From assembly GCA_024684455.1 (NCBI GenBank), contig JAIKWU010000076.1, forward strand, positions 89,645 through 153,644: a DNA stretch of 64,000 nucleotides. The letters are read 5' to 3'. The DNA is from Bacteroidaceae bacterium. GTDB lineage: Bacteria > Bacteroidota > Bacteroidia > Bacteroidales > Bacteroidaceae. Position 1 is the first letter of the stretch; each line of letters opens with the position of its first letter. Made by a program: the position numbers and the translations under genes. Shown here piece by piece: positions 1,766 through 47,479 of the stretch. The notes beneath the pieces are model-generated. The model did not search any database. It worked only from the letters and a program-made list of their open reading frames with translations, and had not been told where the DNA came from.

Positions 1766-2920
1766 ATGCTACTCACTGCTTTACCGATGATGGTCTGCCT
1801 GTTCTGGACAGTTTTTTTGCTGACCAACTACTTCGAGACGCACGATCCTGTACGGGGTCGTCTGTCGGTGTTCATGCTGGCGGCGACATTGCTGTATGCA
1901 GGTCATTATGTTTTTTTTAACCGCTACGAGGAGTGGATTCCACTGAGCGATACGGTGTATGTGTATGCGAACCTGTCGGTCTATCCTCTCTATCTGTGGT
2001 ATATTGATAAACTGACGGAAGGACCTGACCGTCCGAACTTCTGGCGGCGTCTGCTGTTTTTGATTCCTCTGCTGGTGGCGAGTGCGACGTGGATTACTTA
2101 TCAGCGAATGGATGCGGCACAGACGGCTGCGTTCATTGACGCTTATCTCTATCGAGGCAGCATGGAGGGACTGAGCGGTGCCGCCTACGTTCAGGCAGTC
2201 ATCCATGCGGTGGCGCGTCTGCTGTTTGCCGTGCAGATTCTGCCGATATTCATTGCGGGCAACCGCCGTCTTCACCTGTTCGACCCGAAGAGGGAGAAGG
2301 GCCTGCACGGCATCCGCTTCCTGCTGATGCTCTTTGCAGTGGTGTCGTTTTTCTCGTTTGTTTCCAACCTCGTGGGGCGACACCAGTTCTCGTCGTCACA
2401 CATGCTACTGGCTGTTCCTTCGGTGGCTTTTTCAGTGTTTCTTTATTATATAGGATATTTGGGGTATAGGGTGAGACCCAACGGACCCACTCCCTTGCCC
2501 CTCCCTGTGAGGGAGGAGAGTAATTACCCTCATTCTGAGACATTCTCCTCCCCTCCCTCACAGGAAGAGGTAGGAGGGGAGCCCGTGATGTCTTTGCGCG
2601 AACAAATCGAGCACTTGATGAAGGTAGAAGGTGCTTTTCTGCAGCCTAACCTTAAAATCAGCGACATGGCTCAACGGCTGGGCTCAAACCGTAACTATAT
2701 CTACGAAGCGATTAACAAGGAGATAGGGATGTCGTTCTCGGAGTATGTGAACCGTCTGCGTGTGGCGCATTCGCAGGAACTGATGAAGAAGCATCCCGAC
2801 ATGCTGCTGGGTGAGGTAGCGGTAAAGTCGGGTTTCAGCAGCATGGTCAGTTTCTACCGTTCGTTCAAGAAGTATGTGGGCTGTGCACCGAAGGAATGGC
2901 AGTCGGACCACCATGAGTAG
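1766..2920 (+). CDS. Membrane-anchored AraC-family transcriptional regulator (N-terminal multi-TM domain, C-terminal HTH)
   Basis: Hydrophobic helices fill the first ~235 aa. The C-terminal AraC HTH reads ...ISDMAQRLGSNRNYIYEAINKEIGMSFSEYVNRLRVAHSQELM...SGFSSMVSFYRSFKKYVG. The linker carries the family-1 repeat doublet. Confidence 0.85.
   Translation: MLLTALPMMVCLFWTVFLLTNYFETHDPVRGRLSVFMLAATLLYAGHYVFFNRYEEWIPLSDTVYVYANLSVYPLYLWYIDKLTEGPDRPNFWRRLLFLIPLLVASATWITYQRMDAAQTAAFIDAYLYRGSMEGLSGAAYVQAVIHAVARLLFAVQILPIFIAGNRRLHLFDPKREKGLHGIRFLLMLFAVVSFFSFVSNLVGRHQFSSSHMLLAVPSVAFSVFLYYIGYLGYRVRPNGPTPLPLPVREESNYPHSETFSSPPSQEEVGGEPVMSLREQIEHLMKVEGAFLQPNLKISDMAQRLGSNRNYIYEAINKEIGMSFSEYVNRLRVAHSQELMKKHPDMLLGEVAVKSGFSSMVSFYRSFKKYVGCAPKEWQSDHHE
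2484..2584. repeat. Family-1 GC-rich hairpin repeat, inverted doublet A, inside the AraC-family CDS
   Basis: gacccactcccttgcccctccctgtgagggaggagagtaattac ... ctcctcccctccctcacaggaagaggtaggaggggagccc. Translated in frame as PTPLPLPVREESNYPHSETFSSPPSQEEVGGEP. Confidence 0.85.
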
Positions 2921-5090: not shown

Positions 5091-6568
5091 TGCTGACGAT
5101 GTTTTTGAATAAAGATGAGGATGAGCATGATGACCATGCTGATGCCGGCAACCCATAGGAGAATCGTGGGTGAAGGAATAGAGGACGTTTTCTCTTTTGC
5201 CGGTGCAGGGGTAGCAACGGTGTCTGTTTCTACGACTTCTTCGGCGGGTTCGGCAGGCTTGGGTGCCACCTCGGCTTCAGCATATTCGACGCTGTAGATG
5301 TTGACAGCGTTGCCGCCGCCACTGCCGCTATGGCCCTGCGAGGTGACGATGACGATACTGCCGTCGTCAGAGATGTCCAGCCCTACGGGATAACTGTCAA
5401 CGGGCGTCGAGCACACCATCTTCATGCTGCGTGTATCAGCGACGCACAGACGACTGCCGCCGTTGCAGGCTGCAAAGAAGAAACGTCCGCTGGGCGAGGC
5501 CTCGATGGTGCGTGCGCCGCTCATAACGGTACACTCTTCCCAACCACTAACCGTGGCAGTCTTGCCTTGCATCTGTCGTGCTGCGTCCATGAATTTGCTG
5601 AGCGGCATCCGCTGGATGACACCGGCAGCGTTGCTGGAGAGGTAGAGCGTGTCGTTCTTGATGACGAGGTGGCGGATGTTGGCACGCATACCGAGCATAC
5701 GTCCCATGTACTTCTTGGCCTTCAAGTCAATCACGGCGATGCCGCCTGCACCGCCCATGCAGCCGACGAGCAGATAGTTGTCGTCGGGTGTGAATACTGT
5801 GCCTCGCAGTGCATAGCCGCTACCGTTGTCACGGTTGACAGACTCGCTGAGGCTGAAGTTGAGTTTCAGTTGGTAATCGACGATGTAGAGTTGGTCGTAG
5901 TGCCAGGACGCAGGGTCGTCGCCGCTGATGTCCAGCGTCGCCACGGTGTTGTCGCCCCAGTGACTGATGGCCACTGTACGGCCGTCGTGCGACGATGCCA
6001 CCATCTTCGGCAGCGGACCTGTCTCGAACAGGCGGACGATGGTGTCACGGTCGGTATCAATCACAGCCATCGCCGACGGGTCTTGTGCATTGATGTCGTA
6101 GGAACGGCGGTAGTAGGGCACCCACAGATAACGTCCGCCGTGCGTAAACGTGCTCTCGACGGGCTTGCCGCTGAAAGTGTTCAGTGCGCGGCTGCCATTG
6201 TTGTAGTGGCGGAAGGGGAACAGTCCGCTGGGTTTTGCCCACAGTGTGCGATGGCTGTCGTCAAACTGGTGGTGGATGACTTTCAGTTTCTTCCATGTCC
6301 CCATCTCATAGACGACGGTGCAGAAGCCTTCGAGCGAGTTGACGTAGAACTTCTTGCCGCTGGGGTGGATGTTGACCGACTTCGGACTGTGTATGTCAGC
6401 ATCGTAGGTCTGGCGGTCGCCTGTGCTGAAACTCTGAAACTTGTGCAATAGCGTGAGCCTTACGCTGCCGTCGGCTGCCTGGTCTGTCTGTCCGATGCGG
6501 CTGTGAACGACGCCTTGTGCCCATGCAGTCGTGGCATAGAGCGACAGGAGGATGAGTAGTTGTTTCAT
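5087..6568 (-). CDS. Beta-propeller repeat protein with signal peptide and an extra C-terminal transmembrane anchor
   Basis: MKQLLILLSLYATTAWAQ signal peptide. Paralogous to the 3795-5090 gene. The C-terminal tail ...SSIPSPTILLWVAGISMVIMLILIFIQKHRQQ forms a TM helix. ATGA overlaps at both ends. Confidence 0.65.
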   Translation of the reverse strand: MKQLLILLSLYATTAWAQGVVHSRIGQTDQAADGSVRLTLLHKFQSFSTGDRQTYDADIHSPKSVNIHPSGKKFYVNSLEGFCTVVYEMGTWKKLKVIHHQFDDSHRTLWAKPSGLFPFRHYNNGSRALNTFSGKPVESTFTHGGRYLWVPYYRRSYDINAQDPSAMAVIDTDRDTIVRLFETGPLPKMVASSHDGRTVAISHWGDNTVATLDISGDDPASWHYDQLYIVDYQLKLNFSLSESVNRDNGSGYALRGTVFTPDDNYLLVGCMGGAGGIAVIDLKAKKYMGRMLGMRANIRHLVIKNDTLYLSSNAAGVIQRMPLSKFMDAARQMQGKTATVSGWEECTVMSGARTIEASPSGRFFFAACNGGSRLCVADTRSMKMVCSTPVDSYPVGLDISDDGSIVIVTSQGHSGSGGGNAVNIYSVEYAEAEVAPKPAEPAEEVVETDTVATPAPAKEKTSSIPSPTILLWVAGISMVIMLILIFIQKHRQQ

Positions 6569-8778
6569 TTTGCAGATGATTGTGAAAGGATTTCGACATG
6601 CTGCACTTCCGACTCCTTGCCTTTGTATAGGATGTCGATGCGGAATGAGGCTGCGTCGCTGTAGATGTGGAGCGGGAGGACCTCTTCGTCTGCAGGTTCG
6701 TAGTCGAAGCGCAGGTGGATGGTAGTGCCGCTAAGGTAGTTCTCCACAGGTTTCAGTGCATCGTCGCTGTCGAGAGGTCGCAGTGAAAAGATGGGGTCTG
6801 TCATGGCGATGACACGTGGCAGTTGGATGCGGAGTGAGTGGTCCTTGCTCTTGAACCATCCTGTGAAGGTGTCCCACCACGACTCGTCTTTTTCGGCATC
6901 GTCGTTGGTCACCACCGTCGTTCCCTCCCTGAGTGTGTTCTGGAGTTTCGACGGCACGAGCGAGTAGTTGCGCAGATATTCCTCGCGGGCTTGTTGTTGC
7001 TGCTGTGAGCGGTCACGCCGTTCACCTCGCAGGAATGCCAATGCCGACGCTTCCTTGTAGTGTACGTCATCCACCCAGCAGATGCGGTCGTCGGTCATGG
7101 CGATAGCACGGATGCGGGTGATGTCGTCGTACGATTTGCCTGGGTAGCAGAGGTGGACGGTGTCGAGGTCGGCCGTCGAGCGTTTCGGGATGATGTTCAG
7201 CGTCTTCGGCACCTTGATGACGTCGTACTCGTCGCGGTACATGTCGGTGTAGTGGATGCAGAGATAGACGCGCACGTTTTCCAGGTCGATGTCGCTGCGG
7301 TTGTTCAGTTTCACACGCATCACATTGTCGCTGTGCCAGAAGAGCCACGAGGTCTCGGGTTCAATCTGTACGTCGAGGTACGACTGCTCAAGCAGCAGGC
7401 TCTTGAACGGCGCATAGAGGTTTTCTTCGCAGAACTGCATGTCGCTCAGCAGTTCGTCGTAGATGCCTTGGTTGCCGCGACGGAAGAAGTGGTTGTAGAT
7501 TTCGTCACGCGCCTCGTCCATACGGCCTTGGTTGGCATAGTGGCGTGCCTTCAGCAGGTTGGGACTGAACAGTCCGTAGCCCTCCATGGTCGAGGCATAC
7601 AGGCGGCGCAGATACTGCCCTTCGGGTGTCTTCTTCAAATAAGTACGCATGTTGTAGGCGTCGAGCATGTCGGTCAGTCGTGCTGCCTGACGCGGATATT
7701 CCACCGAAGCCTGGTGGAAGCAACTCAGCGCTGCCTGCTCATTGCCGATTTGCTGGTTCATCAACCCTTCGAGTACAAGGGCTGGAGCCGTGCGGTCGGG
7801 ATAGAGCGATTTGTATTTTTCTAGCAACTGAGCGGCCTCTCCTCCCACGGCCTCTCCTCCAGTCTGAGAAGGAGGGGAGGATAAAGTGTCTTCAAACTGG
7901 GAAAAGTGACTGCTCCCCTCCCTCTCAGGGAGGGGTTGGGGGAGAGTCTGCTGTTGTTTAGTTTGCAATAATATCTGCCCCATCGCTTCGAGCAGCATGG
8001 CTTCGCCGCATGTCGGATATTTGCGAAGAATGTTGCCCGTGTGCTTCAGCGCCTCATCCGTACGACCAGCGTAGAGGTCGAGGTAAGCCTTGTCTTTTTC
8101 GGTGCAGAGGGCGTCGTACTCATCCATGTACTTTTTGTAGATGGGCGTATAGTCCTCGAGATATTGGCGGTAGGTCAGTTTCAGCATCTGCAGGTCTTGC
8201 TGAATCTGCGCCTTCAGTTCCTTGTCCTCTTCATATTGCGAGAACACCTCGTCCATGCTTTTGTCGGCATTCTCGCCTGCTGCCAGTCCGAGCACGGCGA
8301 AGAAGTCGCCTGCCGCGGCACGTATGATGCTGCTGATCGAGATGTTCTCGACCATGGTCTGTCCGCCTCGGGCAGCACTGCGGGCCAGCCGCCACGTATC
8401 GCTCAGTTGCTTGTCTTGCTTCTGCAACTTGTACATATACTCCAGTACGGGGAACAGTTTGCGCTTGGCCTCAAGCACGTCTGGGGCCACGCCCGTGTAG
8501 TCCTGATGGGCCATGAAGTTGAGAAATTCATCGAAACTTTCGCTGCGCACCTGTGCCATTTCCATGGCGTTGAGCACGCGCACTGTCTGCTCCAGGTCGT
8601 AATCGCGACCCTGCTGCAGTTGTTCCTGTCGCTGAATGGCTTCGTAAGCAGGCACAAACTCTGCCGCCGGCTTATAGTGTTCGAGGTCGAGCGACAGCAG
8701 GTCGGTGTCGGTGCCACGGCTACAGCCGCTGAGCATGAGTGTCAATACGGCAAGGACTGAAAAAGCAATCTTCTTCAT
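6565..8778 (-). CDS. Large lipoprotein of unknown function (helical/TPR-like N-terminal half); first gene of a 4-gene coupled operon
   Basis: MKKIAFSVLAVLTLMLSGC lipobox. 737 aa. Contains family-1 doublet B in frame. Confidence 0.6.
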   Translation of the reverse strand: MKKIAFSVLAVLTLMLSGCSRGTDTDLLSLDLEHYKPAAEFVPAYEAIQRQEQLQQGRDYDLEQTVRVLNAMEMAQVRSESFDEFLNFMAHQDYTGVAPDVLEAKRKLFPVLEYMYKLQKQDKQLSDTWRLARSAARGGQTMVENISISSIIRAAAGDFFAVLGLAAGENADKSMDEVFSQYEEDKELKAQIQQDLQMLKLTYRQYLEDYTPIYKKYMDEYDALCTEKDKAYLDLYAGRTDEALKHTGNILRKYPTCGEAMLLEAMGQILLQTKQQQTLPQPLPEREGSSHFSQFEDTLSSPPSQTGGEAVGGEAAQLLEKYKSLYPDRTAPALVLEGLMNQQIGNEQAALSCFHQASVEYPRQAARLTDMLDAYNMRTYLKKTPEGQYLRRLYASTMEGYGLFSPNLLKARHYANQGRMDEARDEIYNHFFRRGNQGIYDELLSDMQFCEENLYAPFKSLLLEQSYLDVQIEPETSWLFWHSDNVMRVKLNNRSDIDLENVRVYLCIHYTDMYRDEYDVIKVPKTLNIIPKRSTADLDTVHLCYPGKSYDDITRIRAIAMTDDRICWVDDVHYKEASALAFLRGERRDRSQQQQQAREEYLRNYSLVPSKLQNTLREGTTVVTNDDAEKDESWWDTFTGWFKSKDHSLRIQLPRVIAMTDPIFSLRPLDSDDALKPVENYLSGTTIHLRFDYEPADEEVLPLHIYSDAASFRIDILYKGKESEVQHVEILSQSSAK
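7836..7949. repeat. Family-1 repeat, doublet B (left unit degenerate, with an internal ggcctctcctcc duplication), inside the lipoprotein CDS
   Basis: The right unit gtgactgctcccctccctctcagggaggggttgggggagagtct is a clear family member. Translated on the minus strand as TLPQPLPEREGSSHFSQFEDTLSSPPSQTGGEAVGGEA. Confidence 0.75.
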
Positions 8779-12451: not shown

Positions 12452-13498
12452 TTACGAAATTTTCTGCGAACTGCTGTCATCTTCAGCCAAAAACTTTGGC
12501 TTTTTGGGCCATCTTCCACTCAGCCAAGGTACTTTCTCGACGTAGGGAACGAGCAGGAAGCACACGCCGAAGATGAGCATAAGCAGGATGGTGTAGTCGT
12601 CCCAGTGGCCACGGAGGCTGCGCACGTTGGCTGTACGGATGAGTTTGTAGAGTTGCAGGATAGGGTAGTGTGCCACGAAAAAGACCATCGAGTGCTCACC
12701 GATGTAGTTGATGACAGGGATGCGGGGTGTGTGCAGTTTGATGAGCAAGCCGCTAATGCCGCAGAGCGATGTCACCGTCGAGGCGACGATGATCCAGCAG
12801 TTTCCGTTCCAGGCGTTGGCACTCATGGTGTACTGGCCATGCCATGTAGCGTTCAGCCAGACGAACACGCCGATGAGCAACACCGAAACAGTCAGTGTGA
12901 GTTTGCTGCCCATACGCTCCATCAGCCATCGCCATACACGACCGAGGAAGAAGAGGAAGATGCCGAAGAAGACGTTGTTGAGGCTCAGCCACAGCGGATT
13001 GCCTTCAGTGTAGAGCCACCACGAAATCATCGGAAAGGCGAGCACCACCCAGCGCAGGCCTCTGACTTTGGAGATAAAGTGCATGGCGATGTATGCCCAG
13101 AAGAACGAGAAGAGGAACCACGTGGGCGAGTTGCCGAAGAACGACGAGGTCTGCCACACGTGTTCCCACGTCGTCATCTTCACCACCGTGCTCTTCGGGT
13201 CGAGAATGAACCATACGAAAGTGAAGTGGACGATGTTGCCGATGAGTCCCCACGTCAGGTACGGCACGAGCAGACGCTTCGCCTTGTCGATGCAGTACTG
13301 GCGTGAGTTGCCGCTGATGGTCTTGTTGAAATAGCCAGCCTTGAAGAAGAAGAACGACATGAAGTAATAGGTCCATGCCATCACTTCGGTCCACCATTCC
13401 GCCTTGCCGAAGCCACATGTGTCGGTGATGTGGAGCACAATCATGCGGATGATGCAAATCCCGCAGAGAAGGTCGAAGGTGTGGTTGCGCTGTTTCAT
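12452..13498 (-). CDS. Acyltransferase-3 family membrane O-acyltransferase
   Basis: Polytopic. The N-terminus MKQRNHTFDLLCGICIIRMIVLH is paralogous to the 16144-17169 gene. Confidence 0.75.
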   Translation of the reverse strand: MKQRNHTFDLLCGICIIRMIVLHITDTCGFGKAEWWTEVMAWTYYFMSFFFFKAGYFNKTISGNSRQYCIDKAKRLLVPYLTWGLIGNIVHFTFVWFILDPKSTVVKMTTWEHVWQTSSFFGNSPTWFLFSFFWAYIAMHFISKVRGLRWVVLAFPMISWWLYTEGNPLWLSLNNVFFGIFLFFLGRVWRWLMERMGSKLTLTVSVLLIGVFVWLNATWHGQYTMSANAWNGNCWIIVASTVTSLCGISGLLIKLHTPRIPVINYIGEHSMVFFVAHYPILQLYKLIRTANVRSLRGHWDDYTILLMLIFGVCFLLVPYVEKVPWLSGRWPKKPKFLAEDDSSSQKIS

Positions 13499-14679
13499 GG
13501 TTCAGGATTTGCTTTTTTGGTTCCTCGCCCGAACAGGTACTTCTTCAGCACGGGACTGACGCGCAGGACGTGCGACACCAGACAGCAGGCAGCGATGACG
13601 AGCAGTGCCATTGCGATGGTTGCGGTCTGTTCGAGCACGATGTTCGGACGGTTAGCATTGAACCAGATGCCCACTTGTGGCACTTTCGGCATGAGGATGA
13701 AGTGGAGGAGGTAGATGTCGAGCGTGCGGATTCCTATGTACTGCAAGGCGCGTCCGATGCGCGTCTGTTTCGACAATGCCTGCTCATAATGCCGGAAGGT
13801 CATCACGATGATCATCATCAGCGAGTACATTGACACGGTGCGTGGCAAGTTGGTCCATGCAAACCTCAGCGTGTGCCATTTCAGGGTGTCGGCCGTGGCA
13901 AAGAATGCCACCACGACCATGAGGATGAAGAACCACCGTGTGTCCATCAGTCGCTCCACGCGATGCCAGTAGCGGTGGACGATGTTGCCGAAAAGGAAGA
14001 AGTGAAGGTACTGCACCACCATGATGAGGCTCGACCACTGCATGAATTCCGACTTCGGCCAGGTAAACACTTTCGGCAGGTAGGTCATTTCGTAGAGCAC
14101 GAGGCTCACCGCCCATAATAACCAAATGGACCAGTGAGGCACTCCAGACCCACCCCCTTGCCCCTCCCTTGTAGGAAGGGGAGTAGATACTACTTTTCCT
14201 TGAGAATCTGGCTGCTCTGAGTGACCACTCCCCTCCCTCACAGGGAGGGGTCGGGGGGTGGGTCTTGTAATATAATCAAATAGATAATAGACGATGAACA
14301 TAACGAGCAGTGCCCACGTGAACCAGTAACCGCTCTTGGTCGGACGGTGCAGCGTATCGACCAGCGTCTCCCAGAAGTGCGGATGACGAACGACGATGCA
14401 CACGCAGAGGAACACCAGCGTCGGTATCATCTGAATCTTCACCTTCTTCCACACTGCCATACCCAGACGGACGGGCGTCCACAGCATCTCGGGCTTCCAT
14501 GCCAGAAATCCGCTGACGAAGAAGAACAGCGGCATACGGAACAGTACGACGAAGGGCATCGATGCCGATGTCTTCAGATTGATGCCGTAGCACATCTGTG
14601 CTACATGGTAGGCGACGACCATAATCATCGTAAACCCACGAAGGGCGTCGAGCCACTCAAGTCGTTTGTTGTTTCCCAT
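13495..14679 (-). CDS. Acyltransferase-3 family membrane protein carrying a 40-codon family-1 repeat insertion
   Basis: MGNNKRLEWLDALRGFTMIMVVAYH is an acyltransferase_3 N-terminus. ATGA overlap with the downstream gene. Insert peptide: RPTPRPLPVREGSGHSEQPDSQGKVVSTPLPTREGQGGGSG. Confidence 0.75.
   Translation of the reverse strand: MGNNKRLEWLDALRGFTMIMVVAYHVAQMCYGINLKTSASMPFVVLFRMPLFFFVSGFLAWKPEMLWTPVRLGMAVWKKVKIQMIPTLVFLCVCIVVRHPHFWETLVDTLHRPTKSGYWFTWALLVMFIVYYLFDYITRPTPRPLPVREGSGHSEQPDSQGKVVSTPLPTREGQGGGSGVPHWSIWLLWAVSLVLYEMTYLPKVFTWPKSEFMQWSSLIMVVQYLHFFLFGNIVHRYWHRVERLMDTRWFFILMVVVAFFATADTLKWHTLRFAWTNLPRTVSMYSLMMIIVMTFRHYEQALSKQTRIGRALQYIGIRTLDIYLLHFILMPKVPQVGIWFNANRPNIVLEQTATIAMALLVIAACCLVSHVLRVSPVLKKYLFGRGTKKANPEP
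14146..14265. repeat. Family-1 repeat, inverted doublet C (120 bp) inside the acyltransferase CDS
   Basis: agacccacccccttgcccctcccttgtaggaaggggagtagatac - 30 nt - gtgaccactcccctccctcacagggaggggtcggggggtgggtct. Confidence 0.9.
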
Positions 14680-27080: not shown

Positions 27081-27656
27081 TCAATAGATGAGGAGTCCGG
27101 CAAGGCCGCACAGCAGAATCATCAGGATGGGGTGTACCTTATAGAGGCGTGTGCCGACGAAGGCGAAGCCGAAGATGAGAATGCTCACCGTGAAGGCGAA
27201 GGGGCTTTCGCTGGGCGAGGAGAAGTTGTCGGAAGTCATGAGCAGCAGACAGGCTGCGGCGATGAGACCAACAATGGCGGGACGCAAAGCGCTGAACACA
27301 TTGTTCACGGGCTTTGAGTCGTGATGCTTAATCAAGAAACGGCTGACCATCAGCATCAGCAAAAAGGGCAACCAGATGACGCTCAGCGAGGCTAGCACCG
27401 CACCGATGACGCCTGCCCACTGTGGCATTCCGTTGTTGACGACGGCTGTGTAGCCCACGTAGGTTGCACAGTTGATGCCGATAGGACCAGGTGTTCCCTG
27501 CGAGATGGCGACGATGTCCGTAAACTCTGCGTTGGAGAGCCAATGATGCTTCTCCACCACTTCGTTCTGAATCAGCGACAGCATCGCATAGCCGCCGCCG
27601 AAGTTGAAGATACCTATCTTCGAAAACGTGAGAAAGAGTTGGAGAAATATCATCAT
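27081..27656 (-). CDS. chrA: Chromate transporter family protein (half-size ChrA, second of a pair)
   Basis: FSKIGIFNFGGGYAMLSLIQNEVVEKHHWLS is a CHR family motif. ATGA overlap with the upstream partner. Confidence 0.85.
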   Translation of the reverse strand: MMIFLQLFLTFSKIGIFNFGGGYAMLSLIQNEVVEKHHWLSNAEFTDIVAISQGTPGPIGINCATYVGYTAVVNNGMPQWAGVIGAVLASLSVIWLPFLLMLMVSRFLIKHHDSKPVNNVFSALRPAIVGLIAAACLLLMTSDNFSSPSESPFAFTVSILIFGFAFVGTRLYKVHPILMILLCGLAGLLIY

Positions 27657-28240
27657 GATTTTGTTATTTTACCATATAGATAGCCGCCTACACCAGCCGC
27701 GAGAATAATCCAGATGGGGCTGATGCCCAGAGCCCAGATGAGCAGACAGGCCACAACGGGAATCCACACGTTGCGCAGGTTCAACTTGGCGGTCTTAGCC
27801 ATTCGGAACACAGGTGCGGCTATCAGAGCGACCACCGCAGGACGGATGCCACGGAAGGCTTTCTCTACGTAGATGTTATCCTTGAACTGTTGGAAGAAGA
27901 TGGCAATGAGCAGGATGGTTACGATACTGGGCAGTGCCACTCCCATCGTACCCACAATGCCACCCCACACACCAAACCGCTTGTGTCCGATGTGTGAAGC
28001 CATGTTCATGGCAAAGAGCCCTGGCATGGCCTGCGACACGGCGAGGATGTTCATAAAGTCCTCACGGCTCAGCCACCCGTGCTTGTCCACCACTTCACGC
28101 TCCATGATGGGCACCATCGCGTAGCCTCCACCGAGCGTGAAGGCACCGACCTTGAGGAAGGTGAGAAAGAGAGGACCCACCCCCTCCCCCTCCCTGTGAG
28201 GGAGGGGCGTGATTACTTTATCAATATCGTCCTGTATCAT
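27653..28240 (-). CDS. chrA: Chromate transporter family protein (half-size ChrA, first of a pair); N-terminus encoded by the family-1 repeat
   Basis: FLKVGAFTLGGGYAMVPIMEREVVDKHGWLS. The N-terminal MIQDDIDKVITPLPHREGEGVGP maps onto doublet D (spacer plus unit). Confidence 0.8.
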   Translation of the reverse strand: MIQDDIDKVITPLPHREGEGVGPLFLTFLKVGAFTLGGGYAMVPIMEREVVDKHGWLSREDFMNILAVSQAMPGLFAMNMASHIGHKRFGVWGGIVGTMGVALPSIVTILLIAIFFQQFKDNIYVEKAFRGIRPAVVALIAAPVFRMAKTAKLNLRNVWIPVVACLLIWALGISPIWIILAAGVGGYLYGKITKS

Positions 28241-28304
28241 TATAATAAAAAAGACGGAAGTGACTACTCCCCTCCCTCACAGGGAGGGGCTGGGGGGAGG
28301 GTCT
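28174..28304. repeat. Family-1 repeat, inverted doublet D, straddling the purL stop and the chrA start
   Basis: gacccaccccctccccctccctgtgagggaggggcgtgattac - 43 nt - gtgactactcccctccctcacagggaggggctggggggagggtct. Confidence 0.92.
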
Positions 28305-31300
28305 GTTTTTCAATCCATTTACGTGCATTGACGAAGGCTTCCATCCACGGTGTCACCTCATCGCTTTGACGACGCTCACGTGGATAGTCTGCCATCTGCC
28401 AGGGGAAGATGGCACGCTCCAAGTGCGGCATCATGGCCAGATGACGACCATCAGCACTGCAAAGCCCAGCGATGTCGAAGTCAGAACCGTTCGGATTGCC
28501 AGGATAGCCGTGGTAGGCATAACGGGCCACGACGCTGTAGTTCTCAACCGACTCAGAGAGGGCAAAGCGACCTTCGCCGTGTGCCACCCAGATACCGAGT
28601 TTGCTACCCGAAAGTGAAGCGAGCAGGACGCTTTCATTTTGTGGAATCTCTACGGTCAGGAAGCCGCTTTCAAATTTGTGCGAGACATTGTGTTCCATCT
28701 TGAAGGATGCACCCTGAACCAGCCCAAGTTCTGCCATAAGCTGACAGCCGTTGCAGATGCCGAGTGAGAGTGTATCAGGACGTGCATAGAATGCATCGAG
28801 CGCGGCTTTGGCCTTCGGGTTGAACAAGAACGCACCTGCCCAACCCTTCGCACTGCCGAGTACGTCGCTGTTGCTGAAGCCGCCGCAAAACACGATGAAC
28901 TGCACATCTTCCAACGTCTCGCGACCTGTCACAAGGTCGGTCATCATAACATCCTTCACATCGAAACCTGCGAGCCACAGCGAATAGGCCATCTCACGTT
29001 CGCCGTTCGTTCCTTTCTCACGGATGATGGCGGCATGAGGACGCGGTGCCTTCTCCTTCTTCCAAGCGTCTGCATCGAGGCCATACTGTGCCAGTTTACC
29101 CGTAAAAGTCTTCGGGAAACGCTGCACGACAGGCTGTTGTCCATAGTTTTTGTATCGTTCGTGAGCCATGCCATTGCGGCTTTGCTTTTGGTCCAGCAGG
29201 TGAGATGTCGAGTACCAGATGTCGCGCAGGCGGTCGATGTCGTAGGTCAGCGCCTTCGGACGCTTTCGGATGATGAGTTTGCGCTCGGCAATGGGGTGTC
29301 CGATGGGGATGAATCCGATGCCTTCGGTGTCGAGGATGTTCTGCACGAGGTGTGCATCCTTCTTGCGCACCTGAATCACTACGCCTGGATTCTCGGCAAA
29401 GAGCACCTTCACGAGGTCTGGCTCCGTGATGGCATCGGTGAGATTGACGTTGATGCCGCCTTGTGTGTTGGCGAATGTCATCTCCAGCAGTGTGGTGATG
29501 AGGCCGCCTGCGCTGATGTCGTGACCTGCAAGCAGCAGACCTTCGCGAACAAGGCACTGCACGGCCTCAAACGCATCGGCAAAGTATTCCGCATCGCGCA
29601 CCGTCGGTACGTCGCTGCCGACTTTTCCGAGACTCTGTGCAAAAGCACTGCCGCCAAGACGGAACTGGTCGTACGAGAAGTCGATGTGGTAGAGCACGGT
29701 GTCAGGGTCGTTCACCAGCACGGGCGAGACGACTTTCTTCACGTCGCTCACTTCGCCGCCGGCGCTGACGATGACTGTTCCAGGGCTGATGACTTTCGAG
29801 CCGTCGGGATACTTCTGTGTCATGGATAGCGAGTCCTTTCCTGTCGGCACGTTGATGCCAAGTTGGCAGCAGAACGTGCTGAGGGCCTCAACGCCTTGGT
29901 ACAGACGTGCATCCTCGCCTTTCTGTGAACGGCAGGGCCACATCCAGTTGGCAGAGAGCGACACGCTGTCCAGTCCTTCTGCCATAGGTGCCCAGATGAG
30001 GTTGGTCAAGGCTTCGGCAACGCTGAGCACACTGCCTTTCGCTGCGTCGGCCAGTCCTGCCTGCGGAGCGTGTCCGATGGCTGTGGCGATGCCTTTTTCG
30101 CCACGATAGTCGAGAGCCACGACGCCACAGTCGGAGAGCGGCAGTTGCAGCGGTCCGACGCATTGCTGGCGGGCCACCTTGCCCGTCACGCTACGGTCCA
30201 CCTTGTTCGTCAGCCAGTCCTTGCAGGCGACGCTCTCGAGCCGCAGCACATTTTCGAGGTAGGTGTCGATGAGGTTGACGTCGTATGTCACGTCGGCGTA
30301 GGTGTGGCTAACCGTTTCATCAACCATGACGGTCTTGGGCGAATGGCCAAACATCTGCGCCACGTCGAGGTCGAAGGGACGCACGCCGTCGCCCTGCTCG
30401 AAGGCAAAGTGCGCATCGCCCGTCGTTTCACCGACGACATAGAGCGGAGCCCGTTCGCGTTCAGCCACCTGACGCACGTGCTCTAGATGTTTTTCCTCGA
30501 TGAGCAGTCCCATGCGCTCCTGACTCTCGTTTGCAATGATTTCCTTGCTCGAGAGCGTCTTGTCGCCGATGGGCAACTTCGTCATATCAATCAGTCCGCC
30601 GCACTCCTCGACCAGTTCCGAAAGGCAGTTCACATGACCTGCCGAACCGTGGTCGTGGATGCTGACGACGGGGTTGTGTTCTTCTTCGCAGAGCGAGCGG
30701 ACGAGGTTGTAGGCGCGCTTCTGCATCTCAGGGTTGGCACGCTGCACGGCATTGAGTTCGATGCCGCTCGAGTAGCGACCTGTGTCGACACTCGACACCG
30801 AACCGCCGCCCAGGCCGATGCGGTAGTTGTCGCCACCGACGACGACAATCTTGTTACCCTTTTCGGGTGTGCCTTTCAGACAGTCGCGCTTCGTGCCGTA
30901 GCCTACGCCGCCGGCCAGCATGATGACCTTGTCGTAGCCGTACTGCACGCCGCCTTCCTCATGCTCGAACGTCAGGACAGAGCCTGTGATGAGCGGTTGT
31001 CCGAACTTGTTTCCGAAGTCGCTCGCGCCGTTTGACGCCTTGATGAGGATTTGCTCGGGGCTTTGGTACAGATACTTTTCCTTGCCTTGATAACTTGTCA
31101 TATAGACAGCTGTGCCGGCGATGGGCCACGACCCGACGCCGCCGCCCATGCGGTCGCGAATTTCACCGCCCGTACCTGTCGAGGCTCCATTGAACGGCTC
31201 CACCGTAGTCGGGAAGTTGTGCGTCTCTGCTTTTAACGAAATGACGCTCTCGATAGGCTTAACCTCGAACCAGTCTGCTGTGCTGTGGTCGGCAGGGGCA

Positions 31301-31962
31301 AACTGCTCCACGACAGGACCTTGTGCAAAGGCGACATTGTCCTTGTATGCCGATAGGATTTTATTGGGATTCTGCTGTGTCGTTTTCTTAATCAGAGAGA
31401 AGAGCGACGAAGGCATCTCCTCCCCGTCAATGATGAACGTTCCTCCGAAAATCTTGTGGCGGCAGTGTTCACTGTTGATTTGAGCAAAGCCAAACACCTC
31501 GCTGTCCGTCAGTTTCCGACCCAGTTGCTGCTCCACCTTGTGCAGGTACTCAATTTCCTCTGCACTCAATGCCAGCCCTTCCTGCTCGTTGTATGCCTCC
31601 AGATTGTCGATGTGCTGAATCGGTGCAGGTTCGATGTTGATGTCGAAGATGTGCTGGTTCAGCCCTTCGTAGCGACGCTGCAGCATCGGGTCGAAGAACG
31701 TTTCGTCGTTGGCTGGGAAATACTCCTCAATACGGTCGATGTCGGTCAGCGCCATGTTCTGTGTGATTTCCACAGCGTTGGTGCTCCACGGAGTCACCAT
31801 TTCGCGGCGCGGACCCACGAACGTCCCTGGCAGTTCCGGCTCCTTCAGCAAAGAGGCTCCGCCGAAGAGCCACTCGAGTTTCTCTTGTTCGTCTGCCGTC
31901 GGGGTGTGCCCCATACTCACGGCAATCACAGTCTTGTTTTGTGTCTGGAAGAAATAAACCAT
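28264..31962 (-). CDS. purL: Phosphoribosylformylglycinamidine synthase (single-chain large PurL)
   Basis: 1232 aa with AIRS domains and a C-terminal glutaminase (GICNGCQ). The last 12 aa, TLPPAPPCEGGE, and the TAG stop are encoded by a family-1 unit. Confidence 0.95.
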   Translation of the reverse strand: MVYFFQTQNKTVIAVSMGHTPTADEQEKLEWLFGGASLLKEPELPGTFVGPRREMVTPWSTNAVEITQNMALTDIDRIEEYFPANDETFFDPMLQRRYEGLNQHIFDINIEPAPIQHIDNLEAYNEQEGLALSAEEIEYLHKVEQQLGRKLTDSEVFGFAQINSEHCRHKIFGGTFIIDGEEMPSSLFSLIKKTTQQNPNKILSAYKDNVAFAQGPVVEQFAPADHSTADWFEVKPIESVISLKAETHNFPTTVEPFNGASTGTGGEIRDRMGGGVGSWPIAGTAVYMTSYQGKEKYLYQSPEQILIKASNGASDFGNKFGQPLITGSVLTFEHEEGGVQYGYDKVIMLAGGVGYGTKRDCLKGTPEKGNKIVVVGGDNYRIGLGGGSVSSVDTGRYSSGIELNAVQRANPEMQKRAYNLVRSLCEEEHNPVVSIHDHGSAGHVNCLSELVEECGGLIDMTKLPIGDKTLSSKEIIANESQERMGLLIEEKHLEHVRQVAERERAPLYVVGETTGDAHFAFEQGDGVRPFDLDVAQMFGHSPKTVMVDETVSHTYADVTYDVNLIDTYLENVLRLESVACKDWLTNKVDRSVTGKVARQQCVGPLQLPLSDCGVVALDYRGEKGIATAIGHAPQAGLADAAKGSVLSVAEALTNLIWAPMAEGLDSVSLSANWMWPCRSQKGEDARLYQGVEALSTFCCQLGINVPTGKDSLSMTQKYPDGSKVISPGTVIVSAGGEVSDVKKVVSPVLVNDPDTVLYHIDFSYDQFRLGGSAFAQSLGKVGSDVPTVRDAEYFADAFEAVQCLVREGLLLAGHDISAGGLITTLLEMTFANTQGGINVNLTDAITEPDLVKVLFAENPGVVIQVRKKDAHLVQNILDTEGIGFIPIGHPIAERKLIIRKRPKALTYDIDRLRDIWYSTSHLLDQKQSRNGMAHERYKNYGQQPVVQRFPKTFTGKLAQYGLDADAWKKEKAPRPHAAIIREKGTNGEREMAYSLWLAGFDVKDVMMTDLVTGRETLEDVQFIVFCGGFSNSDVLGSAKGWAGAFLFNPKAKAALDAFYARPDTLSLGICNGCQLMAELGLVQGASFKMEHNVSHKFESGFLTVEIPQNESVLLASLSGSKLGIWVAHGEGRFALSESVENYSVVARYAYHGYPGNPNGSDFDIAGLCSADGRHLAMMPHLERAIFPWQMADYPRERRQSDEVTPWMEAFVNARKWIEKQTLPPAPPCEGGE

Positions 31963-32073: not shown

Positions 32074-32742
32074 CTACATCTGCCCACTTTCGATGAGCAA
32101 TATGGCTCTTTCAGTCAGCCGGTCATCGACTTCGGGGTCGTACTCCTTCTTCAGGCTGGCTCCGAAGAGCGAGGCGAAGGCGTTGTAGAATCCGGCCTTG
32201 AATCCGCCCATATACGTCTTGATGAGTTCGTAGGAGGTGCGGTTGGTCTGGCGGTCAATGAGTTTGATGAGCAGTTTGCCCTGTCCGAAGGTCAGTTTCT
32301 TCAGGCGCGGCGTCCACTTCTTCTTCATCTCCTTTTCCATCTGTTTGAGGAAGGCATCCTTCTCTTGTTTGGTCTCGAGCGAGTCCATGTGCGCAATCTG
32401 TGCCTCGATTTCGTGCTGGATTTCGACGGCAATCGGATAGACCTTCTTGATGTTGTTCGCTATCTTGTAGTACTTCTTCATCTCCCGCTCGTTCTTGAAC
32501 ACCAGCGGCGGAAAGACATATACCTCGGACAGCACAATCAGCGGTATCATTTCGCCGTCGGTGTCCTCGACCATGCCGGCGAAGCCCATGGCGTGCGAGA
32601 AGACAGGGGATCCCGTGTAGTGCTCAGCCATGCCTGGCTGCTCAACGATCTGTGCGAGCAGACTCACCCCCTTGCCCCTCTCTGCGAGGGAGGGGAGTAG
32701 AAAGAGTAGGAATATGATAATTGTCAGTCTTCGCATCAGCAA
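32074..32742 (-). CDS. DUF4294-like secreted protein
   Basis: Signal-like N-terminus. ...LTFGQGKLLIKLIDRQTNRTSYELIK... region. A solo family-1 unit sits in the N-terminal region. Confidence 0.6.
   Translation of the reverse strand: MLMRRLTIIIFLLFLLPSLAERGKGVSLLAQIVEQPGMAEHYTGSPVFSHAMGFAGMVEDTDGEMIPLIVLSEVYVFPPLVFKNEREMKKYYKIANNIKKVYPIAVEIQHEIEAQIAHMDSLETKQEKDAFLKQMEKEMKKKWTPRLKKLTFGQGKLLIKLIDRQTNRTSYELIKTYMGGFKAGFYNAFASLFGASLKKEYDPEVDDRLTERAILLIESGQM
32660..32700. repeat. Family-1 repeat, solo unit E, inside the signal-peptide region of the DUF4294-like CDS
   Basis: agactcacccccttgcccctctctgcgagggaggggagtag. Translated on the minus strand as LLPSLAERGKGVS. Confidence 0.8.
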
Positions 32743-47331: not shown

Positions 47332-47479
47332 AACATAAATCTACATTATGAAATGTGGTTAAAAAAGTGTGTGGGAGAGGTGGGAACATTGCACAGACAA
47401 GTATATAAAACTTGTCTTTTTAGCATTTTTTACCGTGGTTGCAAGCAGCCCAAATCTGTCCACAAATCTTTTTCGGCTG

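Follow-up and report, generated by a model that had tools for sequence, protein, structure and literature searches.

The purL-chrA Junction

The window, i.e., the whole stretch of DNA that was analyzed (64 kb), carries purL (28264-31962, minus strand; 1232 aa) and, next to it, chrA (27653-28240, minus strand; 195 aa), with a second chrA-family gene (27081-27656; ORF list and Pfam) downstream of chrA. The window proteins are MCR4614011 and MCR4614012, from a Bacteroidaceae/Prevotellaceae MAG. PurL has the C-terminus ...KWIEKQTLPPAPPCEGGE, and ChrA starts at an ATG (28240-28238) and has the N-terminus MIQDDIDKVITPLPHREGEGVGP before LFLTFLKVG. Two inverted arms of 54 nt (28165-28218 and 28258-28311), which are 78% complementary and are separated by 39 nt, occupy the junction, and a tail-to-tail inverted pair of a palindromic unit of ~46 nt spans 28172-28304.

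The purL-side unit (28258-28304, minus strand) consists, in the sense of the gene, of an outer end cAGACCCTCCCCCCAG, a core hairpin CCCCTCCCTGTGAGGGAGGGG, and a tail AGTAGTCACTT, and is read as CAG ACC CTC CCC CCA GCC CCT CCC TGT GAG GGA GGG GAG TAG. It contributes the 12 terminal codons of PurL (TLPPAPPCEGGE; 28267-28302, minus strand), which are missing from relatives with an empty site, and a new stop TAG (28264-28266, minus strand) within its AGTAG tail, which supplants an ancestral TGA overlapping the chrA ATG; this TAG belongs to the GTAG of the inner end of the unit (ctac on the plus strand, 28264-28267). An intercistronic stretch of 23 nt follows (28241-28263, minus strand), made up of the end of the unit tail and an AT-rich segment CTTTTTTATTATA, and nothing corresponds to it in empty sites, in which purL and chrA share 4-7 nt. 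Next come ATG ATA CAG (M-I-Q; 28232-28240, minus strand), the ancestral chrA start kept as host sequence between the units, and an in-frame insertion of 60 nt (codons 4-23, DDIDKVITPLPHREGEGVGP; 28172-28231, minus strand), delimited by comparison with empty sites and composed of 13 nt outside the unit consensus plus the chrA-side unit. The latter (28172-28218, plus strand) reads aGGACCCACCCCCTC, core CCCCTCCCTGTGAGGGAGGGG, and tail CGTGATTACTT on the plus strand, and contains an in-frame GTG (28178-28180, minus strand), a possible alternative chrA start that would give M-G-P-LFLTF and a protein of the ancestral length of 175 aa. In the sense of the genes, the junction thus runs from ...GAA AAA CAG through the purL-side unit to GAG TAG TCACTTCCGTCTTTTTTATTATA ATG ATA CAG, and then through GACGATATTGATA and the chrA-side unit to CTC TTT CTC.

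Independent assemblies (MDO4993676/7 and the four ENA contigs L168-L171) carry this doublet too and encode the same termini, so an assembly artefact of the window contig is ruled out. A mosaic boundary was also observed at the window doublet (~28150-28330) in comparison with L167, L168, and L172: the 3' end of the window purL is 98% identical to that of L168 and 83% to that of L167, whereas the window chrA and second chrA gene are 98% identical to L167 and 83% to L168. MDO4993677 carries the same extension peptide on a different chrA core. Such a mosaic is consistent with inter-strain recombination tracts that end at the heterology created by an insertion.

A Family of Palindromic Units Read in Frame

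The core CCCCTCCCTnnnAGGGAGGGG (≤2 mismatches) was found 8 times in the window against 0.01 expected, a count reached in 0 of 100 shuffles, and the sequence and coordinates of the junction doublet are as the initial annotation had described them. Alignment of the 8 copies gave a unit consensus of ~46 nt, namely cAGACCCaCCCCCttg, then CCCCTCCCT-gtg-AGGGAGGGG, then AGTAGTCACT, with a C-rich outer end, a 9-bp GC hairpin, and an AGTAG-TCAC tail; beyond the unit, the flanks of the 8 copies, set in one orientation, are mutually unrelated. Each of the 8 cores folds into a 9-bp stem with a 3-nt loop. Three tail-to-tail inverted doublets (2498/2550, 14161/14230, and 28187/28269) and two singlets (7915, apparently with a degenerate partner, and 32675) account for the copies, and the spacers of the three doublets (~11, 28, and 41 nt) lack mutual similarity. 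The tail is AGTAG in 3 of the 8 units, the others having AGTAA, AGCAG, AGTGG, AGGAG, or CGTGA, and the GTAG sits 3' of the hairpin on the strand that reads GTAG. A CGTC tag present in both inner extensions at the junction was dismissed as chance because it is missing from the other six units.

All five of the repeat loci in the window lie inside intact ORFs, as judged by Pfam domains or full-length homologues, and are read through in frame. When the unit consensus is read in the orientation found at the end of purL, a TGA in the loop and a TAG in the tail close two of the three frames; two to three frames are open in the opposite orientation, where a tail TGA is the only stop in the third. The frames used by all eight units agree with this pattern, and the unit is read in three different frames, as PLPxREG, LPSLxxRG, or SPPSQ, with P-L-P-x-R-E-G being the reading of 5 of the 8. 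At the gathering threshold, Rfam contains no family for the unit, and a sensitive scan gave only sub-threshold matches to generic miRNA-precursor hairpins. Six-frame scanning for HUH and Y-x-x-N-P motifs detected no RAYT/IS200-like gene in the 64-kb window. The outer flank tends to be A-rich (A at -3 in 13 of 17 units, copies that are not independent), with no clear target motif, and comparison of occupied with empty sites revealed no target-site duplication, i.e., no duplicated host bases, at either junction unit.

Apart from the junction, a 384-aa membrane/HTH_18 regulator (1766-2920) has a tail-to-tail doublet (2483-2585, plus strand) in its interdomain linker, read in frame, and the homologues of this regulator align with it end to end as a single protein. 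One unit with an apparent degenerate partner at ~7860-7885 (7904-7950, minus strand) is in frame in a 737-aa ORF (6565-8778). A protein of the same 90% cluster (P0286) has a different sequence of similar length at the position of this insert (..ALPPTPLSESEGETFGEQEEMPRDVSEVTFSPTLPEREQ..), which suggests replacement by, or inversion of, a related repeat at 7850-7950. Another tail-to-tail doublet (14146-14265, minus strand) is in frame in a loop of an Acyl_transf_3 acyltransferase (ORF 13495-14679). In the acyltransferases P0293 and P0294 of close relatives (371 aa versus 394 aa in the window), a single symmetric palindrome takes the place of this doublet; the difference of 69 nt is the same as the distance from core to core, which would be expected if slippage had occurred between the cores, since palindromic cores are repeated directly as well as inversely. 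More distant acyltransferase homologues have either no insert (..ESKL/KWGKW..) or other P/G-rich, palindrome-like inserts in the same loop.

The remaining single unit (32660-32706, minus strand) forms part of the signal-peptide-like N-terminus of a DUF4294 protein (32074-32736), where it encodes the hydrophobic end and putative cleavage region (..FLLPSLAERGKGV..). An orthologous unit is found in L001-L003 (L001, ~1665-1710), across species ~81% identical at the DNA level, and some members of the DUF4294 cluster are annotated from a downstream ATG (185 aa). The window also holds a SAM-II long-loop riboswitch aptamer at 47410-47469 on the minus strand (52.2 bits versus a gathering score of 44).

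Empty Sites and the Ancestral Junction

Close relatives were obtained by cluster look-ups; the best match in a GTDB genome scan, in which the window's own species is absent, was 81%, and a metagenome scan found no closer carrier of the doublet. The site is empty in L001-L006, L172-L175, L167, and L180, where purL and chrA overlap by 4-7 nt and ChrA (175 aa) starts with M-[ILM]-[QK] followed directly by LFLTF. The empty junctions read AAA TGG ATT GAG CAG AGATGATACAA TTA TTC CTC in L001-L006, with the purL TGA overlapping the chrA ATG, GAA AGC CTATGATGCAA CTC TTT in L172-L175, TCT CAA CAATGCTAAAA CTC TTC in L167, and TCC GGC CAATGATACAG TTA TTC in L180. PurL terminates there with KWIE-QR, KWIE-SL, KWIS-QQC, or KWIS-GQ. 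Downstream of the insert, only one residue distinguishes the ChrA of L167 (P0250) from that of the window, although the insert itself is missing from L167. These sequences indicate that the ancestral junction was an overlapping stop and start of the ATGA type, which coupled purL to chrA.

Among homologues, the PurL tail after FVNARKW comprises 4-10 residues in 116 of 117 measurable proteins versus 18 in the window, and a long repeat-derived tail was seen in only one of the 117 (P0132). Similarly, the GGGYA motif is preceded by ≤22 residues in 110 of 120 ChrA homologues, compared with 39 in the window, and most homologues have 3-9 residues before F-x-T-F. Because PurL and ChrA homologues mostly have short termini, the extensions at both termini are derived. 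As the initial annotation had stated, the purL-side unit encodes the last 12 residues of PurL and its TAG. Repeat-free relatives have PurL ending near KWIE or KWIS and ChrA opening a few residues before LFLTF, and repeat-free orthologues, when checked for the same terminal extensions, were without them.

The start of chrA requires a different reading. The L180 start ATGATACAG (ATG ATA CAG/TTA TTC) is identical to window 28240-28232 at 9 of 9 positions, and the chrA start codon is therefore ancestral; the other empty sites have ATG ATA CAA (L001, 8 of 9), ATG ATG CAA (L172), and ATG CTA AAA (L167). The chrA ATG and codons 2-3 are thus host sequence trapped between the two units, not sequence supplied by the repeat. 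It had been proposed that the doublet was the source of a new stop and a new start and encoded the first ~23 residues of ChrA. Of this proposal, the purL stop and ChrA residues 4-23 stand as inserted DNA, whereas the chrA start codon and the M-I-Q of codons 1-3 belong to the host. Arrival of the doublet as one insertion that replaced both boundaries is likewise unsupported, because host DNA lies between the units.

Recurrence at the Junction in Other Lineages

Related units occupy this junction in other lineages. L065 has a normal purL end, followed by ATG ATA CCA ... and one chrA-side unit ending just before CTG TTT TCC ACC. In L178, the PurL C-terminus of which is only 64% identical to that of the window, purL ...GAA AAG AAG is followed by a unit ending GAG TGA, an AT-rich spacer, ATG plus 30 nt, a second unit, and TTA TTT AAG ACC TTC TTC. 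L176 displays the same layout of unit, spacer, ATG, and unit at a purL/LytTR junction. The units of L178 and L176 use other reading frames and other stops (TAA in the loop, TGA in the tail). Because these units are much more alike than their host genes and are read in different frames, they point to separate, more recent insertions in distant lineages, and we infer that a permissive or preferred site was occupied repeatedly, not that all of these units go back to a single ancient insertion.

Several further rearrangements were noted. In L176 (2390-2590), two partial copies (..PHREGQGGGSLFPHREGQGGGSFPHREGQ..) stand in tandem behind the downstream unit and show that the unit was amplified locally inside a coding region. 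The sister lineages L008 (2860-3030) and L087 (1360-1530) bear a different repeat-rich insert of ~110-190 nt with the motifs GGTACGA/GCACCGCAGT at the same purL/chrA junction; here, the PurL tail is ...QAAAVR, and ChrA has a genuinely new start, MDPTEH... or MDATQQ.... The junction is therefore a hot spot for more than one element. In L180 (~1100-1300), a related doublet at the ATGA overlap of chrA and the second chrA gene fuses both into a 402-aa ORF (P0253), the converse outcome, in which a stop and a start were lost instead of supplied. In a second doublet in L178 (98-220), the 16 nt that flank either unit on its outer side (TGATAGCGGCCTTAGG) are identical on opposite strands, so that either the inverted symmetry reaches beyond the units or the contig contains a fold-back assembly problem.

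RNA Structure and Translation of the ChrA Extension

In the mRNA, the two units are predicted to form one long hairpin (28165-28311, minus strand) that places the chrA AUG in its apical loop; the mRNA-sense strand of the junction has a minimum free energy (MFE) of -85.5 kcal/mol (z = -7.2), and long hairpins with an apical AUG are also predicted for L168 (z = -9.5) and L178 (z = -5.8). Candidate transcription signals were also considered. The one terminator-like match (28271-28256, minus strand) is weak, with a 6-bp stem in the tail followed by a T run, and the main core hairpin lies 16 nt from that run. The sigma-70 consensus TATAAT is not the promoter type of Bacteroidota, and a TATAAT in the spacer was therefore given no weight.

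Between the window and L168, ChrA codons 1-23 differ by 5 nonsynonymous and 0 synonymous substitutions, whereas the ChrA core differs by 8 nonsynonymous and 57 synonymous substitutions (pN/pS 0.04; Fisher p = 1e-4). Because all 5 substitutions there are nonsynonymous, the extension peptide is unconstrained, or possibly untranslated, and it fits a neutral N-terminal tail and a non-translated leader alike. In L178 and L065, the segment from the unit to LFxTFF offers neither an ATG nor a GTG in frame; in these lineages, therefore, the upstream ATG must serve and the unit be translated.

Origin and Consequences of the Pair

The comparison of occupied with empty sites makes it probable that two REP-like units were inserted on either side of a retained chrA start and rewrote the ends of both genes. 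One unit lies in the last codons of purL, in the one orientation and frame in which its own tail TAG ends translation, so that PurL gains 12 repeat-encoded residues and a new stop. The other, with ~13 extra nt, lies in frame directly after codon 3 of chrA, such that ChrA keeps ATG-ATA-CAG and would gain 20 residues before its first transmembrane segment. In place of the ATGA overlap, there is now an AT-rich spacer of 23 nt, which the predicted, very stable hairpin would keep in its loop. The units are probably non-autonomous elements spread in trans by a RAYT-like HUH transposase. They may persist because only stop-free, in-frame copies at permissive positions, such as termini, linkers, and loops, survive selection, and the most likely consequence for PurL and ChrA is a largely neutral decoration. 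As a one-unit intermediate was found in none of the close relatives (PurL of 1218, 1219, 1226, or 1232 aa; ChrA of 175, 193, 195, or 196 aa), the order of events and a two-step origin are matters of inference; two events, or one insertion followed by a local inverted copy, would account for the pair better than a single cassette. In addition, neither the unit consensus nor the empty sites account for ~12-17 nt that precede the ATG and 7-13 nt that follow codon 3.

Arrival of one cassette that replaced both boundaries and brought a new chrA ATG in its spacer seems very improbable. The pair does form a single strong hairpin, the layout of unit, AT-rich spacer, ATG, and unit in L178 and, with LytTR downstream, in L176 could mean that a pair can form in one step, and no one-unit intermediate was found among the close relatives. 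Against this stand the first three codons, which match L180 at 9 and L001 at 8 of 9 positions, and the presence of M-[ILM]-[QK] in every empty site, for which the probability of a chance [ILM][QK] is ~0.01 by codon count; moreover, the other doublets have unrelated spacers without an ATG, and L065 has a lone chrA-side unit. Just as hard to credit, if not slightly harder, is an old occupied junction from which the empty sites arose by secondary seamless excision. Related units do sit at the same two positions, within a codon, in L178, L065, and L062, the ChrA proteins of which are only ~55% identical, and enzymes of the IS200/IS605-type HUH group excise seamlessly. However, precise and independent excision of both units would be needed, most Prevotellaceae/Bacteroidales junctions are short or overlapping with no repeat remnant, and, as described above, the units of distant lineages resemble one another far more than their host genes do and stand in different reading frames. 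Insertion of two units around a host start codon is thus preferred to both.

It is unlikely, albeit less so than either of these, that ChrA is in fact unextended, being initiated at the GTG within the unit (28180-28178), with the upstream ATG dead or giving a minor product; the unit would then supply a new non-ATG start. This GTG belongs to the unit consensus GGGGGTGGGTC, is in frame in both the window and L168, and restores the ancestral length; the extension, as noted, bears no sign of protein-level constraint, and many N-terminal REPs were cautioned not to be codogenic (PMC3733652). Nevertheless, the units of L178 and L065, in another frame without an internal start, leave the ORF from the upstream ATG intact, every carrier has an open frame from the ATG onward, and the NCBI annotation gives a 195-aa product. 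Because the ATG lies in an AT-rich loop and the GTG is buried in the predicted stem of -85 kcal/mol, the folding model favors translation of the window ChrA from the ATG. Rather doubtful, too, is selection of the pair itself as a structure-based device for translational coupling or attenuation, with the chrA AUG held in the loop and the 5' arm melted only by ribosomes that finish purL. According to the predicted fold, a ribosome finishing purL would melt the 5' arm, and the hairpin either replaces the lost ATGA coupling or is simply tolerated. If the pair were selected, its independent gain in at least three lineages would reflect a preference for A-rich gene boundaries together with positive selection, and Prevotellaceae would carry RPE-like, coding-tolerant repeats that routinely rewrite termini and decouple or fuse neighboring genes. 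On present evidence, we prefer two insertions with largely neutral effects.

Significance and Relation to Known Repeat Systems

Occupied and empty alleles of near-identical strains capture, at single-nucleotide resolution, a selfish palindromic repeat rewriting a C-terminus and a stop codon, and show how an overlap that couples translation can be broken by such a repeat and the N-terminus of the neighboring protein lengthened while both genes are left intact. The locus is of value because occupied and empty states can be compared cleanly at a coupled junction, because a start codon is trapped there, because the arrangement recurs in several lineages, and because of its host phylum. In-frame behavior of the REP/RPE type is extended to Prevotellaceae of the gut and rumen, in which such repeats seem not to have been described; we found no paper in the literature describing such a repeat family in Prevotella. 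Annotators of these genomes should bear in mind that a proline/glycine-rich segment at a terminus or in a linker may stem from a repeat. The polymorphic junction also suits the study of how REP hairpins act on translation in bacteria without Shine-Dalgarno-led initiation.

REPs close to stop codons reportedly modulate translation in E. coli. The junction resembles these elements in having a stable hairpin at or beside the stop codon of the upstream gene, but its hairpin lies inside coding sequence and itself provides the stop. The GTAG of the E. coli REP consensus is located 5' of the hairpin, whereas that of the window units is located 3' of it, which represents the opposite polarity. With GTAG/CGTC-tagged REPs in general, the units share a short GC-rich stem-loop with an unpaired, here only partly conserved tag, dispersed copies, and frequent inverted dimers of the tail-inside type, in which the spacer varies and the two units can pair as a larger hairpin. 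We do not assign the units to the GTAG REP superfamily, however, because AGTAG is present in only 3 of 8, the polarity is opposite, and each of the five window loci lies within a gene, whereas most REPs are extragenic. According to the survey of Di Nocera et al. (2013; PMC3733652), intragenic REP dimers can encode 20-30 aa, some of them at the N- or C-termini of ORFs, and tail-inside ("TT") dimers differ in their spacers; Bacteroidetes were not among the bacteria in which that survey reported GTAG-type REPs. One RAYT subclass, 2.6, is specific to Bacteroidetes (PMC6006769).

The REPIN-RAYT system (Bertels and Rainey, 2011; PMC3116915) likewise joins two inverted REPs in one hairpin and includes singlets and doublets, the presumed mobilizer being a single-copy HUH transposase. 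Unlike the window doublets with their unrelated spacers, a REPIN replicates as a unit with a family-typical spacer; furthermore, the junction spacer contains host coding sequence, and a RAYT was not found in the 64-kb window. The units also differ from MITEs in that occupied and empty sites reveal no target-site duplication. Rickettsia palindromic elements (RPEs; PMC10969869) are similar in being palindromic repeats that enter unrelated genes in frame, leave the ORF intact, and add a peptide segment at positions compatible with protein function. An RPE is, however, a single alpha-proteobacterial element of ~100-150 bp with a family-specific conserved peptide, whereas the window unit is ~46 nt long, usually paired, read in several frames, and found in Bacteroidota, such that the two are likened by behavior and not by sequence. 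Judged from its sequence and placement, the element appears to act like an intragenic repeat of the REP/RPE type, and we regard it as a new Bacteroidota addition to a known class.
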